Part shown: piece by piece, positions 7,885 to 46,813 of the stretch
Layout of the letters: the number at the start of each line of letters is the position of its first letter
Position numbering within the stretch: position 1 is the first letter of the stretch
IMG/VR virus record: IMGVR_UViG_2724679293_000007
Span: 34,885 to 98,884 of that record
Reading direction: 5' to 3' (one strand)
Source: a virus
Lineage: Duplodnaviria > Heunggongvirae > Uroviricota > Caudoviricetes
Length of the DNA stretch: 64,000 nucleotides
Made by a program: the position numbers and the translations under genes
Notes under the pieces: model-generated
What the model saw: the letters and a program-made list of their open reading frames with translations, nothing else
The model's database searches: none
Told to the model about the DNA's origin: nothing

Positions 7885-8462
7885 TGACATTCAGAATGAG
7901 TGAACAATCACGGACCATAAAAATTTATAATCTACTGGCTGGAACCAATGAGTTTATTGGTGAAGGTGATGCATACATTCCACCTCATACAGGTCTGCCT
8001 GCAAACAGTACCGATATTGCCCCGCCAGATATTCCGGCTGGCTTCGTGGCCGTTTTCAACAGTGATGAGGCATCGTGGAATCTCGTTGAAGACCATCGGG
8101 GAAAAACCGTCTATGACGTGGCTTCCGGCGACGCGTTATTTATTTCTGAACTTGGCCCATTACCGGAAAATGTCACCTGGTTATCCCCGGAAGGGGAGTT
8201 TCAGAAGTGGAACGGCACAGCCTGGGTGAAAGATGCAGAAGCAGAAAAACTGTTCCGGATCCGGAAGGCGGAAGAAACAAAAAACAGCCTGATGCAGATG
8301 GCCAGTGAGCATATTGCGCCACTTCAGGATGCCGTAGATTTGGATATTGCGACGGAGGAAGAGGCATCGTTACTGACTGCATGGAAGACATATCGGGTAT
8401 TGTTGAATCGTGTTGATACAGCAGTAGCAGCGGATGTTGAGTGGCCAGTCGCCCCGCAATAA
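7884..8462 (+). CDS. tail fibre assembly chaperone U'
   Basis: 192-aa ORF with ATG overlapping the Sv' stop; position and size typical of the U/U' chaperone. Confidence 0.8.
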
Positions 8463-24044: not shown

Positions 24045-24170
24045 TTTTTTTAGCTTCATATGCTACATTAACTTGCTTGCGTGCTAATGCATTTTCGGTT
24101 TATCCTAAACAGGCATCTTAGTAAAACGGATGCCGGGATTGGAACCCCGGATAATGCAAAAGGCGACACA

Positions 24171-24192
24171 GACGCCAAAAGCGTCTTTTTTT
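24171..24192 (+). terminator. rho-independent terminator/attenuator in the immI leader
   Basis: gacgccaaaagcgtc followed by TTTTTTT. Confidence 0.45.
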
Positions 24193-24199
24193 GTGTCAT

Positions 24200-24340
24200 G
24201 CCATCGCACAGCCATACGTAGCACATAGCTCCGAGATCAATGGTAGTGCTGGCTGGGCTGCCGAAAGGCAGGCCGGTTCCCTTTTGCGCCGGTAGTTCCA
24301 ACCCAGTCAGTGCTACCGCCATTGAGATTGGAACCTCACG
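24200..24340 (+). ncRNA. immI leader with c4-type antisense repressor RNA candidate
   Basis: Non-coding leader upstream of icd with mutually complementary segments (gtagtgctggctggg ... cccagtcagtgctac), as expected for the c4 RNA and its target sites; exact ends not determinable here. Confidence 0.35.
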
Positions 24341-26632: not shown

Positions 26633-27478
26633 ATGCTGGCTAAAGTCACTTTCCTGAGCTGTATAACGATGAGCGATTTTACTTTTTCTGGCTATGAATT
26701 GGCCTGCTTTGTAACACACTCCGGTCTATCCCGTAGCGCCGGGCATATCCTGTCGCAATGTGCAAATCTCGCGGCAACAACCAGTGAATACTTCATTCAC
26801 AAGCCTCACCGCCTGATCGCGGCAGAAACTGGTTATAGCCAATCAACCGTCGTTCGTGCATTCCGTGAAGCTGTAAACAAAGGAATCCTGTCTGTAGAGA
26901 TTGTTATCGGCGATCACCGTGAACGTCGCGCTAACCTGTACCGGTTTACACCATCCTTTTTGGCCTTCGCACAACAAGCCAAAAATGCGCTGATTGAAAG
27001 CAAATTAAAGATCTCTTCAGCGGCAACCAAGGTTAAAGCTGTTCTCGCTAAGACATTGGCTTTATTTAATTTTTTATCCACACCCCCATGTCAAAATGAT
27101 ACCCCCTCCCCCTGTCAGGATGACGTGGCAATAAAGAATAAGAAGTCACAAGTTAAAAAAACAAAAAGATCAGTTTCCGGCGGTGCCGGAACGAGCAGAC
27201 TCAAAAAATTGACTTCATGGATCGCTGAGGCAAAAGCAAAGGCTGACAATCTGCGGTTATCCAAAAAACGCGCTCAAAAACATGAGTTCAAGCAGAAAGT
27301 AGAGGCGGCAGCGCGGAAATATGCTTACCTGAAGAACAAGCGTTCTCCTGATATTTGCGGGATATCAAACTTCGATAATCTGCCGCATTGCATGACGGTA
27401 AACAAAGCTCTTAATGCGGTTTTAGCCAAAAATAAAGATAACGAACAATGGGGTATACCGGCAGGATTCAGAGGGTGA
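26633..27478 (+). CDS. repL: RepL-like lytic replication initiator
   Basis: 281 aa directly after kilA; N-terminal winged-helix-like segment; name by synteny and size. Confidence 0.65.
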   Translation: MLAKVTFLSCITMSDFTFSGYELACFVTHSGLSRSAGHILSQCANLAATTSEYFIHKPHRLIAAETGYSQSTVVRAFREAVNKGILSVEIVIGDHRERRANLYRFTPSFLAFAQQAKNALIESKLKISSAATKVKAVLAKTLALFNFLSTPPCQNDTPSPCQDDVAIKNKKSQVKKTKRSVSGGAGTSRLKKLTSWIAEAKAKADNLRLSKKRAQKHEFKQKVEAAARKYAYLKNKRSPDICGISNFDNLPHCMTVNKALNAVLAKNKDNEQWGIPAGFRG

Positions 27479-27528
27479 TAGATTGCTCTAATCTGGAGTC
27501 ACCTGGCGTTTTCAGTTTGAGGTCGGAG

Positions 27529-27774
27529 ATGCAATCTGATTTTTTACAGTTAGCGATCGCTTTTGCAGGATATGTTTGTATTGGCTTCTGTGTATACATG
27601 ATCAGCCGAAAAATGCTTGTCGATATCGACCGCAAAGAACGAGCAGAGGAGATCTTAGTATGGATTTTCTTTGGCGCGGTCTGGCCATTAGGGATCATGT
27701 TTGCTGCAACATTTCTTCTGATGTGGATATTCACCCTTCCAGGTGATTTCTATAGAAAAAAAGCCAGACATTGA
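27529..27774 (+). CDS. small two-TM membrane protein
   Basis: Internal ATG with GGAG RBS inside track ORF 27448..27774. Confidence 0.45.
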   Translation: MQSDFLQLAIAFAGYVCIGFCVYMISRKMLVDIDRKERAEEILVWIFFGAVWPLGIMFAATFLLMWIFTLPGDFYRKKARH

Positions 27775-27897
27775 TACAATCGTTGCGGGTGCTTGAGGCT
27801 ATCTGCTTCAGGCATGACCCGAAAAGCAGATAGAAGAAAGCCCCAGATAACATTACGCGTCCTGCAAGACGCTTAACATTAATCTGAGGCCATATCT

Positions 27898-28104
27898 ATG
27901 CTTAGCATACGTAGATTAGCCTCTTACCGACCAAAAGGTCAAGGAGAAGCAGGCTATGAAGCAGCAAAAAGCGATGTTAATCGCTCTGATCGTCATCTGT
28001 TTAACCGTCATTGTGACGGCACTGGTAACGAGGAAAGACCTCTGCGAGGTACGAATCCGAACCGGCCAGACGGAGGTCACTGTCTTCACAGCCTACGAAT
28101 CTGA
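27898..28104 (+). CDS. mok-like overlapping frame of the hok locus
   Basis: 68-aa ORF overlapping hok in another frame, as in hok/mok/sok loci. Confidence 0.4.
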   Translation: MLSIRRLASYRPKGQGEAGYEAAKSDVNRSDRHLFNRHCDGTGNEERPLRGTNPNRPDGGHCLHSLRI

Positions 28105-28111
28105 AAGGTAA
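27956..28111 (+). CDS. hok: Hok/Gef-family type I toxin (51 aa)
   Basis: Own translation MKQQKAMLIALIVICLTVIVTALVTRKDLCEVRIRTGQTEVTVFTAYESER matches the Hok/Gef signature (TM helix, LTRKxLCE(I/V)R, AYES); missed by the 60-aa track cutoff. Confidence 0.9.
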   Translation: MKQQKAMLIALIVICLTVIVTALVTRKDLCEVRIRTGQTEVTVFTAYESER

Positions 28112-28411
28112 GAGACCTGGCGGGGAGTGATCCCCGCCACTCTTCGTGTGTCTGGTAACCTCAATGCACCCTTTTCTCCCCAATAGTGTAAAACACAATG
28201 AAGTAGAAGGAGTTATTTCACATCATGCAAAGATTCAGACCATATCTCCCAATAGCCTTCGCGACATGATGACTTTCAGAAATATCTAGCTGTTAACAAA
28301 ATTCCATACTTGCTTTGCTAATACCACCTAGATTATATATGGAAAAATACACCTAAAACTTAAACAAATTATATCCACAACAAACATCCATCTATTAGGA
28401 TTAAAATTAAT

Positions 28412-28439
28412 TTAATAATAAATAATACAACACCGGTTC
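28412..28439 (-). terminator. rho-independent terminator of the MazG-like gene
   Basis: On the minus strand: caccggttt-N11-aaaccggtg followed by a T-rich tract. Confidence 0.5.
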
Positions 28440-28465
28440 ATTTTCTAACAAACCGGTGGGCACCA

Positions 28466-29458
28466 TTATTGGAATAACTTACTGATTACATTAAAAACAT
28501 TAAGGGCGTTACTTGCCACACTAGACATCTTGGCTGAATTTTTTTCGATTGAGTCAAGAACACTTTCGACTTCCGATAAAGTTCTTCTGCTATCTGCATC
28601 TTTTCCTGAGTCTATCGCATCTTTAATTGCAGATATAGCAGACTCTAAATTCTCCTTAAACTCACCTGTCGTCTCATCCTTCAAGAGAAGTTCTAACTCT
28701 TGTTTAAGTTTTTCCAATGATGCTCTTTTCTCATCAGTTTTACTAATCTTCCCTGAATAACTGACACAAACACATTCTCTTTTATTGCAGACAGGACAAC
28801 CATTTAGATAATAACTTTCAAACGCCTCGCCAAGATCATCATCTTTAAAAATAATCCCCCATAAAGAAAACAACCAAGCATATATATCAGCACACTCTTC
28901 ATGAAGATTTTCTTTGTTGTAATTTTTATCTTCAATTGATTTAGCATAAGCCTCTTGCAACTCACCCAACTCTTCGAATAACCTGGATGAATGATAAAAC
29001 CCACCAAAAGTAGACCAAATGGTTCTATTCGACGGATAGATATCATTAATCATTCGTGGCGCATAAGGCGGAAATTGCATAGGTTTAATAGCGTTATATT
29101 TATTGAAAAGCTCATCTTTAATTCCTTTTGCGCTTCTTATTTTCTCTGGCTTTCTGTGTGTTTGAGAACAGGAACAAGGCGCCCCTAAGCAATAAGGACA
29201 GCAACTAGGGAATTTTTTATAAAATGCTTCCTGTGGTTGTATTTCAAGTTTATCACAGATTGCAAAAAGCCAAGACAATGCTTCTATATAGGTATTTTTT
29301 AATAATTCTTTATCCTGATTACCATCACGAATAAACTCACGTGTTAAATAAGCTGTTTTCCTTGTCAGATAAGAGTACATATACTCAAATGATTTTTCTT
29401 CATTTTTTTTGCTGTAAATACCTACAATAATATTGCTCATATCATTGATACGTAACAT
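28466..29458 (-). CDS. tandem MazG-like (all-alpha NTP pyrophosphohydrolase-like) protein with two Cys clusters and acidic coiled-coil C-terminus
   Basis: Start at internal ATG with AAGAGGA RBS; second module has the EExxE...EExxD signature (FEELGELQEAY...HEECADIYAWLF); both modules end in CPxC...CxC; AT-rich with its own terminator. Confidence 0.7.
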   Translation of the reverse strand: MLRINDMSNIIVGIYSKKNEEKSFEYMYSYLTRKTAYLTREFIRDGNQDKELLKNTYIEALSWLFAICDKLEIQPQEAFYKKFPSCCPYCLGAPCSCSQTHRKPEKIRSAKGIKDELFNKYNAIKPMQFPPYAPRMINDIYPSNRTIWSTFGGFYHSSRLFEELGELQEAYAKSIEDKNYNKENLHEECADIYAWLFSLWGIIFKDDDLGEAFESYYLNGCPVCNKRECVCVSYSGKISKTDEKRASLEKLKQELELLLKDETTGEFKENLESAISAIKDAIDSGKDADSRRTLSEVESVLDSIEKNSAKMSSVASNALNVFNVISKLFQ

Positions 29459-29755
29459 GACATTCCTCTTAAATAAGCCAATACTTCCTAGAACCATATA
29501 TGCTTCGACAAAGATTAACGGACATCTTGCCTTCACAAACTTTGACGCTACATAAATTTAACCATGTGCATACTAAATATTTAAGGTAGAAAAGTATAGG
29601 AGTATTTATTAATAGGTAACTGTTAGTTTACACTCACTTCATACCAGAGTATTTACAAGATGTTATTTTACTCTATTCGCTAGGCGGTGGAATGCGGTTG
29701 TATCAAGGGGAGGTAAACCTCCCCCGAAGAAGATTAAAAGTACAAGGGATAACAC

Positions 29756-33368: not shown

Positions 33369-35096
33369 TTACTCAGAGTCACCGGCATCAATCGTGTCGC
33401 CGCTTATGAAGTTAAGCCCGCCTTTTTTGGCCATTGTCAGCGTTACACGAGTGAAGTAATCAGCGCCGTTGCGTGGGTGCATATCGTTGATAGCCGAACC
33501 CCACAGTGTGGTACGGTTGACCAGCGCCGGAGTGGTCGGATGCTGGAACGGGATAGCCGGGACAGCATCACCAGTCACGAAGCCTGCTTTACCCGGATTT
33601 TCATCACGGACGTAGCACAGCACATCCATCGAGCTGAACTGAATGTTCTCTGTCGTTAAGTTCTTACAAATACCAGCAGGTACTTCGTACACTTTCACGT
33701 TACCGAACAGGGTACCGATGTAGTGAACATACGGAGTCTGGATATAGTCTTCGGCTGGCTGGAAGAAATCCTTCGGCAACTGTTTGAAGAAAGATGCTGC
33801 ATCAGCACCAGCAAACATCCCCATCGCACCAGAAGATTTAACGCGCTCAATAATGTCGCGATATACAGTCTGGAATTTGCCACGAATGATGGTTGCCCAT
33901 ACATCAAAGGACTGGTTAACCGGCAGAGCGATGTCAAAGGTGTCGGTCGCAAGAGTACGCCAGATCATGATGCGAAGACGCAGCATATCCTGTTCATGAG
34001 ACAGGTATTCCTTCAGGGTGCGGAACTGTAGGGAACCCAGGTCCAGACCAAATTCACGCTGTGCTTCATACGCCGCCTGTACCGTGTGCTCAGCCGCGAT
34101 AACGAACTGGCTTGGGAACAGGGTGTATTTCTTCATTTCGTGGTTGATCAGCGGGATCAGCTCAGGAGCGGCTTCAATATTGATTTCCGTCTCAATTGCG
34201 ATCTCAGTGCCTTTATCCGGCGCTTTGGAGAACGACAGGGCAATCTGACCAATGTTGTAGTTCAGAGAGCAGGTAACAGTGATTTGCTCACCAGCAGCAT
34301 TAGTAAACGAGTGAAGTAGGCTGCCGGAACCGTTATCAACAACAGACTTAATACGGTTAACGTAGATGTTAGTGCGACCTTTTCGGATTGGTACATTCTG
34401 GCCTTCGAAGTCTTCCATCTTGAAGGTTGCGGTTTTGCTGGTGCCATCGGAGCTTGCCACCAGCACATAGCGGCGGCGTAACTGGCTGTACACACCGACG
34501 GATTGCATGTCCAGAACATCACCAGCAGCATAAGAACCAAAAGAGGAACCTGCCACGTTAAAGACTTCATAGATGTCGGACTGGTCACGCGTAACCGGAA
34601 TGAAGGTACACGCATCAGCGGTAGCTGCCCCCAACTGAACAGGCAGGATCATCGCGAGGAATAAAGGCAGACGCATAACACCGTCAGAAACGCTCATCAT
34701 CTCTGCTGCGACGGATTCCAGCATCGCTTTATTAGTGGCATCCATGCTATTGCGGGTGGACTCAATCAGGCAGTTTTCCAGCGTCTGGTGGCAGGAGGCC
34801 AGAATTTCCGGACGCGGCATAGATTTATGTGCTGCGGCGTAGTCAGCCAGTGCACTTGCCCACGCGGTAGCAATTTGAGCGGTGGCATTATCAGAGATAC
34901 CCGCAAAAATTGGGTCTTTACGTGCAGCTTCAAGGATAGATGCGGCACGCGCGGCATCATCTTTGATGAATTGGTTATCAGTACCGAACTGTGCTGTACT
35001 TGCCCAGCCAAGAACGGCTTTAGAGCGTTTTGCGATATCTGCAATACGATTCTGGTATTCGCGTAAGTTACTCAAGTTACTCTTCCTTAAACACAA
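33369..35096 (-). CDS. major head protein (P1 gene 23 position); start codon uncertain (TTG in track)
   Basis: 575-aa ORF adjacent to parS as in P1; followed by a hairpin. Confidence 0.55.
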   Translation of the reverse strand: MCLRKSNLSNLREYQNRIADIAKRSKAVLGWASTAQFGTDNQFIKDDAARAASILEAARKDPIFAGISDNATAQIATAWASALADYAAAHKSMPRPEILASCHQTLENCLIESTRNSMDATNKAMLESVAAEMMSVSDGVMRLPLFLAMILPVQLGAATADACTFIPVTRDQSDIYEVFNVAGSSFGSYAAGDVLDMQSVGVYSQLRRRYVLVASSDGTSKTATFKMEDFEGQNVPIRKGRTNIYVNRIKSVVDNGSGSLLHSFTNAAGEQITVTCSLNYNIGQIALSFSKAPDKGTEIAIETEINIEAAPELIPLINHEMKKYTLFPSQFVIAAEHTVQAAYEAQREFGLDLGSLQFRTLKEYLSHEQDMLRLRIMIWRTLATDTFDIALPVNQSFDVWATIIRGKFQTVYRDIIERVKSSGAMGMFAGADAASFFKQLPKDFFQPAEDYIQTPYVHYIGTLFGNVKVYEVPAGICKNLTTENIQFSSMDVLCYVRDENPGKAGFVTGDAVPAIPFQHPTTPALVNRTTLWGSAINDMHPRNGADYFTRVTLTMAKKGGLNFISGDTIDAGDSE

Positions 35097-46737: not shown

Positions 46738-46813
46738 GGCCCTTTAGCTCAGTGGTTAGAGCTGGCGACTCATAATCGCACGGTCACCGGTTCAAGTCCG
46801 GTAGGGGCCACCA
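46738..46813 (+). tRNA. tRNA with anticodon CAU, ileX-like (tRNA-Ile2; Met not excluded)
   Basis: Cloverleaf folded by hand: acceptor GGCCCTT/AGGGGCC, D-arm GCTC-AGTGGTTA-GAGC, anticodon loop CTCATAA, T-arm ACCGG-TTCAAGT-CCGGT, encoded CCA; near-identical to E. coli ileX as recalled. Confidence 0.9.

Follow-up and report, generated by a model that had tools for sequence, protein, structure and literature searches.

Does a phage-plasmid related to P1 carry a hok-type killing module, and is that module complete enough to work in the way of the classical plasmid systems? The question is raised by a locus in a stretch of 64,000 nucleotides (nt), hereafter the window, from a tailed virus of the Caudoviricetes (IMG/VR record IMGVR_UViG_2724679293_000007, positions 34,885 to 98,884 of that record). 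A reading of the letters alone (the original prediction) had placed a hok/mok-type type I toxin locus at positions 27780-28160 of the window. Our analysis indicates that the region from about 27753 to 28174 very probably contains an intact type I toxin-antitoxin cassette, a hok/mok/sok system belonging to the hokD/hokW subfamily, which would work by the mechanism of plasmid R1. The core of the original claim, a hok-type type I module on a P1-like phage-plasmid, was borne out by a Pfam match, by the Rfam family RF01794, by alignment with phage 933W and by covariation among related loci.

The toxin gene, hok, occupies 27956..28111 on the plus strand and encodes a product of 51 amino acids (aa), MKQQKAMLIALIVICLTVIVTALVTRKDLCEVRIRTGQTEVTVFTAYESER; its coordinates and sequence had been predicted exactly. 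The product matched the Pfam family HOK_GEF (PF01848) over the whole profile (positions 1-42 of 42) with 78.7 bits (E = 2.4e-22; cut-off 22), which is far above chance. The scores obtained with two NCBIfam models, NF007279 (Hok; 49.5 vs 73) and NF007290 (HokA; 38.1 vs 89), did not reach their cut-offs. The gene is preceded by a Shine-Dalgarno sequence AAGGAG (27941-27946, +), and only one hok copy was found in the window by tblastn. A second, longer open reading frame (ORF) of 68 codons (27898..28104, +) overlaps hok in a different frame. The original prediction assigned this frame to the position of mok (modulation of killing), and rightly so: its ATG at 27898 aligns with the annotated mokW ATG of phage 933W and lies inside the stretch covered by the Sok antisense RNA. 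A Shine-Dalgarno sequence GAGG (27886-27889) is located 8 nt upstream of the mok ATG.

The closest relative of the cassette is the hokW-mokW-sokW locus of the Stx2 phages 933W and Sp5/VT2-Sakai (AF125520; PMC8621323), with 88% DNA identity to the window between the two terminal elements of the cassette, tac and fbi (see below). The hokW-sokW system of Sp5, a close relative of 933W, was characterized by Takada et al. in 2021: HokW localises to the inner membrane and causes growth arrest, and sokW, which is complementary to the hokW 5′ untranslated region over 71 nt, neutralises the toxin in a manner partly dependent on RNase III and Hfq (PMC8621323). The sokW RNA was seen by northern blot in Sp5, and protection was lost in a promoter-less sokW mutant (PMC8621323). 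Moving the 933W annotation onto the window placed sokW at 27836..27906 (−), the mokW ATG at 27898 and hokW at 27956..28111. The Sok RNA of the window, mapped by this alignment, would be about 71 nt long and be transcribed on the minus strand from 27906 to about 27836, spanning both the mok Shine-Dalgarno sequence and the mok AUG. It is predicted to consist of a single-stranded 5′ tail of 15 nt, a long hairpin of −29.1 kcal/mol and then a U-rich sequence, CUUUCUUCU. The original prediction had expected Sok on the minus strand at around 27850-27950, and the predicted promoter falls inside that range.

This predicted Sok promoter (27913..27942, −) is composed of a −35 element TTGACC (27942 to 27937), a spacer of 18 nt and a −10 element TAATCT (27918 to 27913), with the predicted start 7 nt past the −10 element. 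An automatic promoter/terminator scan of the window picked up neither the Sok promoter nor the Sok terminator, because its thresholds exclude a −10 element with three of six matches and a long interrupted stem; both features were placed by hand and by alignment. Comparison of the primers YO-421/422 with the 933W sequence revealed that the “pro-less” sokW mutant had the minus-strand hexamer TAACCT changed to GAGCCG, and the same hexamer aligns with TAATCT of the window. Most relatives keep the TTG of the −35 element and T1, A2 and T6 of the −10 element. The −35 element overlaps the hok Shine-Dalgarno sequence of the opposite strand, and one extra base near 27939 (GGTCAAGG vs GG-CAAGG) has two effects at this place. 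It puts mok out of frame with hok in the window, unlike mokW, and it turns the Sok −35 element TTGCCT of 933W-type loci, including sokW itself, into TTGACC. The out-of-frame arrangement occurs in the window and in the loci L007, L008, L027 and L029, of which L007 and L008 also have their upstream flank in common with the window. In mokW of 933W and in the hokD-type chromosomal, hokC-type, Photorhabdus, Pantoea and Citrobacter loci, the two genes share one frame, and mok adds 19 codons at the N-terminal end.

A search of the whole window with Rfam detected RF01794, a family bearing the name of the R1 sok, at 27787..27961 (+) with 113.9 bits against a gathering score of 59; the match takes in the complete model (1-157 of 157), and almost every pair is a standard one. 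We considered whether this match was the Sok gene itself and rejected the idea, as the match lies on the hok-sense strand, extends over 157 positions and ends at the hok AUG. RF01794 (“sok antitoxin”) models the hok leader, which holds the complement of Sok, rather than the Sok RNA, and annotation pipelines using this family would put “sok” on the wrong strand. The start of the model suggests the 5′ end of a predicted full-length hok mRNA (27787..28174, +), whose 3′ end was placed where homology stops just past fbi. Its putative promoter (27753..27780, +) has a weak −35 element TAGAAA, a spacer of 16 nt and a TG-extended −10 element TACAAT (27775-27780) that sits 6 nt upstream of 27787; a consensus scan gave 9 of 12 matches plus the TG. 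In most relatives with an intact leader, even in those with an unrelated upstream flank, a −10-like hexamer (TAGAAT, TATAAT or TATATT) is found at the same distance from GGGTGC. Homology of the cassette with 933W extends from about 27783, a few bases upstream of GGGTGC, to 28173, just past GCACCC, and homology with record MH422554 stops at 28174, in both cases directly after fbi. As judged from these alignments, positions of about 27783 and 28173 are the limits of a mobile cassette.

The two ends of the predicted mRNA are complementary. The translational activator element (tac), GGGUGCUUGAGG, lies at the 5′ end (27787..27798, +), and the fold-back inhibitory element (fbi), CCUCAAUGCACCC, lies near the 3′ end (28159..28171, +). 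In the minimum-energy fold of 27787..28174, tac is paired with fbi with one base bulged, and the energy of the duplex, −20.4 kcal/mol, was reached by none of 2000 shuffles of the 3′ element. For a comparative examination of this and other helices, we took 47 hok loci from genome contigs of Escherichia, Shigella, Kluyvera, Citrobacter, Pantoea, Photorhabdus and Erwinia, and aligned the window with the 25 non-redundant loci that had both end motifs, after trimming (26 loci in total). On this alignment RNAalifold independently gave a closing helix 1-6:403-408, which corresponds to tac-fbi. Pair 4:405 of this helix covaries (UA, 17 loci; CG, 8; UG, 1). Trimming did not impose this covariation, because any of the four combinations was permitted at these positions by the patterns used. 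Despite an insertion or deletion, pairing in the inner half of the duplex is kept in every aligned locus. We then scored a named structure composed of tac-fbi, the 5′ hairpin, the Sok terminator/target stem, a helix across the hok start and a 3′ GC hairpin. Standard pairs filled 93.4% of the cells, compared with 39-45% when the partners were slid by 1-3 columns, and 15 pairs were changed on both sides, compared with 2-6 in the slid controls; the named structure came partly from the window's own fold, which introduces some bias in its favour, but the margin is still large.

The individual helices point in the same direction. The 5′ stem-loop of the hok leader (27799..27833, +; CUAUCUGCUU / AAGCAGAUAG) is present in the Rfam structure and in the fold, and it covaries (helix 2: 10 pairs, 3 of them changed on both sides, 92.3% of cells paired). 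The original prediction had pointed to complementary elements in the leader, and their core proved correct, with CTATCTGCTT (27799-27808) pairing with AAGCAGATAG (27824-27833); the additional GCTTGAGG is no partner in that hairpin and belongs to tac. In the Sok terminator/target stem (helix 3), 7 pairs are changed on both sides. The hairpin of this stem has an extension of 18 nt, CGCGUCCUGCAAGACGCU (27853-27870; alignment columns 71-88), which is present in hokD/hokW-type loci and absent from the hokC-type, Photorhabdus, Pantoea and Citrobacter loci. A long-range helix with arms at 27954-27965 and 28079-28091 (+) was given by RNAalifold and sequesters the hok start region; 96.9% of its cells are paired (helix 4), and compensatory changes occur at 175:310 and 181:304. 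Such a sequestered start would make hok translation depend on that of mok. In the window the terminal pair of this helix is C-A, because of the Thr42 codon.

The GC-rich hairpin GGCGGGGAGUGAUCCCCGCC (28120..28139, +) was obtained in the fold, by RNAalifold and by covariation (helix 5: 96.6% paired, 2 pairs changed on both sides). The original prediction had noticed this hairpin, which does exist and is conserved, but had wrongly taken it for the fold-back element. We rejected that assignment in favour of fbi (28159-28171), which lies 20 nt further downstream, pairs with tac and extends partly past position 28160, where the locus had been thought to end. By analogy with the R1 model, the GC hairpin is probably the protective 3′ stem of a processed, translatable hok mRNA, at which 3′ trimming halts. 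A further element, the upstream complementary box (ucb; AAGCCCC, 27838..27844, +), is the candidate alternative partner of tac in the processed mRNA, according to the Rfam consensus structure. All 7 pairs between 27787-27794 and 27838-27844 are standard for the window in the Rfam-aligned structure. The ucb columns are nearly invariant in the alignment (one locus departs), and covariation is uninformative there either way. The Rfam model and the nearly invariant columns make the tac-ucb pairing plausible.

How does the cassette compare with known systems? It resembles the 933W locus in the layout of a 71-nt Sok, the mok start and hok, and in the 18-nt extension of the Sok hairpin, and both are found in temperate phages; the protein itself has 47 of 51 residues in common with HokW. 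The carriers differ, as the window derives from a plasmid prophage and hokW from an integrated lambdoid prophage. In addition to the reading frame of mok and the −35 element, 6 positions of the 17-nt Sok 5′ recognition tail differ, suggesting that cross-neutralisation with sokW is doubtful. The founding member of the family, hok/sok (parB) of plasmid R1, has the same parts and logic as predicted for the window, including closure by tac and fbi, a ucb, a Sok encoded opposite the start of mok, and a host plasmid of low copy number whose loss is lethal to the cell. In R1, mok is likewise out of frame with hok, and Sok is 64 nt long compared with about 71 nt in the window. The window Hok is about 42% identical to R1 Hok, a value obtained with an approximate R1 sequence; an identity of 44% was reported between HokW and R1 Hok (PMC8621323).

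Among chromosomal loci, hokD (relF) of E. coli is to be compared, as the HokD-type protein has 48 of 51 residues the same as in the window, and this protein identity of about 94% explains why RefSeq gives the name hokD to the plasmid gene. The K-12 hokD gene presumably sits after relBE as a leaderless locus, and one phage match lists RelE and RelB near its hok. Leaderless chromosomal hok loci (L015 and L030) have an unrelated upstream flank and neither mok nor sok, unlike the window, which appears as a complete regulated system. On these comparisons, the name hokD fits the protein of the window, not the architecture of its locus. The leader, tac and fbi are also common to hokC-type (gef) loci. 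A Hok identical to that of the window over the matched residues was encoded on two tiny contigs assigned to Acinetobacter idrijaensis (L016; 275 bp) and Xanthomonas pisi (L028; 431 bp), and a locus with 88.6% identity was found in a record assigned to Actinobacillus phage vB_Apl-pPE4 (H8). These three cases look like assembly contamination or mislabelled hosts, not true host range.

The surroundings of the cassette are P1-like. C4 antisense RNA was detected by Rfam at 24236-24323, and icd, ant, kilA and repL lie upstream of the cassette; matching records have tail genes, parAB and repA downstream of it. On this gene content, the window belongs to a P1-like, low-copy plasmid prophage, a carrier for which the killing of plasmid-free cells makes sense. 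The cassette has repL on one side and the bplB-side tail genes on the other. The window matches reference P1 (NC_005856) and P7 as far as 27492 and again from 29723, and P1 and P7 have rlfA-rlfB-pmgF in between. The hok segment is absent from both, and the query matched nowhere else in the P1 record, in agreement with the original view that P1 has no hok. In MH422554-type records, the segment 27493-28174, with a small ORF and hok/sok, is followed directly by the bplB flank. The plasmid database PLSDB contained 560 records with the hok segment (477 at no less than 95% identity; 449 non-mobilizable) and 101 records with the P1 rlfA-rlfB-pmgF segment, so that the hok allele is about five times commoner. 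Rather than the allele of reference P1, it is the one commonly found at the variable repL-bplB site of sequenced plasmids. The original prediction spoke of an accessory insertion; a more fitting term is that of an alternative cassette occupying a variable site. The cassette is held at 95-100% identity in the 477 plasmid records, mostly non-mobilizable, which argues against decay. The window sequence is 100% identical to plasmid records whose toxin is called hokD in RefSeq, and this name is already given in hundreds of public plasmid records. Therefore, the original statement that the locus had been missed by the ORF track does not extend to public annotation; for Sok, it should be considered that the PLSDB gene tables contain no RNA genes.

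The original prediction also described P1 as using phd/doc rather than hok. This is right for reference P1 in that it has no hok, but no replacement is seen here: plasmid record NZ_CP074369, which has the 481-bp query without any difference and agrees with the window at 99.1% across 6.5 kb around it, has both modules. Its Phd/YefM and Doc are encoded at 76781-77382, which is about 3.8 kb beyond the position matching the window end. The element of the window thus probably carries two unrelated addiction modules, hok/sok and phd/doc. A tblastn search of the window with Phd and Doc sequences gave no match, which is uninformative because the queries were approximate and because phd/doc lies past the window end in NZ_CP074369. 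The phd/doc system is a type II addiction module with a protein antitoxin and a Fic-family toxin. It is a functional analogue of the cassette in that it kills cells losing the P1 plasmid prophage, and it is unrelated in sequence and sits at another locus. The literature that we found on hok in P1-like elements consisted only of plasmid inventories, without discussion of the locus.

By homology with plasmid R1 and hokW-sokW, the following mechanism can be proposed for the cassette. A stable hok mRNA would be transcribed from the promoter at 27753-27780 and closed by pairing of tac on fbi, and in this form it would be neither translated nor bound by Sok. Slow trimming from the 3′ end would take off fbi, probably as far as the GC hairpin, so that tac could pair anew with ucb, exposing the mok ribosome-binding site and forming the Sok target hairpin. 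The unstable Sok RNA would then pair over the mok Shine-Dalgarno sequence and AUG and block the translation of mok and, by coupling, of hok; RNase III, which is involved in the R1 model, would take part in this repression. When Sok is not replenished, through plasmid loss or transcription shut-off, the processed hok mRNA would be translated and Hok would be expected to damage the inner membrane. By analogy, the cassette most likely serves, alongside phd/doc, to kill cells from which the low-copy plasmid prophage has been lost, and it may possibly help with lysis on induction as well. We prefer plasmid-loss killing as the most economical reading.

Several observations weigh against an intact, R1-type system with this role. 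Only three of the six bases of the Sok −10 element agree with the consensus, and the overlap of the Sok promoter with the hok Shine-Dalgarno sequence and the mok frame confounds its conservation. A plain, unconstrained minimum-energy fold of the 3′-truncated RNA showed an alternative 5′ hairpin without tac-ucb pairing. The automatic scan of the window found no terminator-like site downstream of fbi, and the sequence past 28174 is a separate AT-rich insertion, so that the 3′ end given here for the primary hok transcript is a predicted one. With phd/doc probably present already, a second addiction module is not obviously needed. Finally, experiments with the closest relative have demonstrated a helping role in lysis alone, and none in stabilisation (PMC8621323).

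This last point leads to a tentative alternative in which the machine is the same and its selected role is lytic: Sok would be lost on induction, early Hok would damage the membrane, and lysis would be faster with more phage released. In Sp5, sokW RNA disappears after mitomycin C treatment, HokW appears about 1 h ahead of the endolysin, and when the locus is deleted, growth arrest after mitomycin C comes later and only half as much phage is released (PMC8621323). The 88% identity of the window cassette to hokW-sokW favours the transfer of this role. So does its position, as it directly follows the kilA-repL lytic operon, which is under C1 control and has the same orientation, with a C1 operator partly kept at the left junction; read-through on induction would be expected to meet the Sok promoter head-on. 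However, a terminator-like site (27731-27746) lies between the upstream ORF and hok, and P1 has its own holin and endolysin, reference P1 doing without hok. We consider a lytic role a serious, though less likely, alternative, and it is compatible with a stabilising one. A more specific version, rather unlikely in our estimate, would have the cassette wired to the lysis-lysogeny switch, such that C1 derepression sends transcription into the Sok promoter, Sok is turned off and Hok serves as an early lysis helper. If so, the one-base shift, by which mok leaves the frame of hok and the Sok −35 element becomes a better one, would be an adaptation of the plasmid-borne allele, and the unexplained disappearance of sokW RNA on Sp5 induction would be given a concrete mechanism.

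Defence of the lysogen by abortive infection is a further reading, in which a virulent phage stops host transcription, Sok is depleted and Hok is released. When R1 hok/sok was present on a high-copy plasmid, T4 plated with an efficiency lower by 42% and its plaque size was reduced by about 85% (summarised in PMC8621323), and the site of the cassette is a variable accessory locus at which the window has also gained an AT-rich insertion with a gene named MazG-like in RefSeq. The effect on T4 is small, though, and needed a high copy number, and the PADLOC models had no match for Hok or for either of the two neighbouring proteins; we therefore regard a defensive role as improbable. Least of all do we expect an inactive, passively carried relic. 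Most chromosomal hok loci of E. coli K-12 are reportedly inactive, according to work of Pedersen and Gerdes in 1999. Many chromosomal relatives are visibly damaged, and among the loci of our set the leader is lacking in L015 and L030, fbi is disrupted in L019 and the mok frame is broken in L020, L021 and L026; in the window itself the Thr42 codon disrupts the terminal pair of the hok-start helix. Against such a relic stand the elements of the window, all of which are intact (both promoters, tac, ucb, mok, hok, the GC hairpin and fbi) and free of any insertion sequence, as well as the 95-100% identity across plasmid records mentioned above. Killing of plasmid-free cells by an intact cassette remains our preferred reading.

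The system as such is already known, since it belongs to a textbook family, its closest relative was tested experimentally and identical copies are annotated in RefSeq plasmids. The value of the present analysis lies mainly in correct annotation, with precise coordinates for Sok, tac, ucb and fbi, in the recognition of the hok allele as the common state of its site, and in the probable presence of two addiction modules per element.

Some minor features of the region may be added. The left breakpoint falls inside the P1 C1 operator Orlf (27482-27498), of which the window keeps ATTGCTCTAAT, 11 of 17 bases, before it diverges. Between repL and hok lies an ORF of 81 aa with hydrophobic segments (27529-27774, +; a 108-aa form starts at 27448), named in RefSeq as the hypothetical protein WP_001426344. 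It showed no significant match in Pfam, NCBIfam or PADLOC, and its 3′ end is also found upstream of hok in L007 and L008. On the other side, the AT-rich insertion (28175-29722; 30-37% GC compared with 44-50% in the flanks) begins right after fbi and is not present in MH422554-type relatives. It contains an ORF of 356 aa (28466-29536, −), the one with the MazG-like RefSeq name, for which Pfam and PADLOC gave no match and NCBIfam only a spurious one of 15.5 bits. Elsewhere in the window, Rfam matches above the gathering score were obtained for IS009 (8227-8425; 192.7 bits), for isrK (24113-24191; 58.5 bits) just upstream of C4, and for a tRNA (46738-46810; 64.7 bits).

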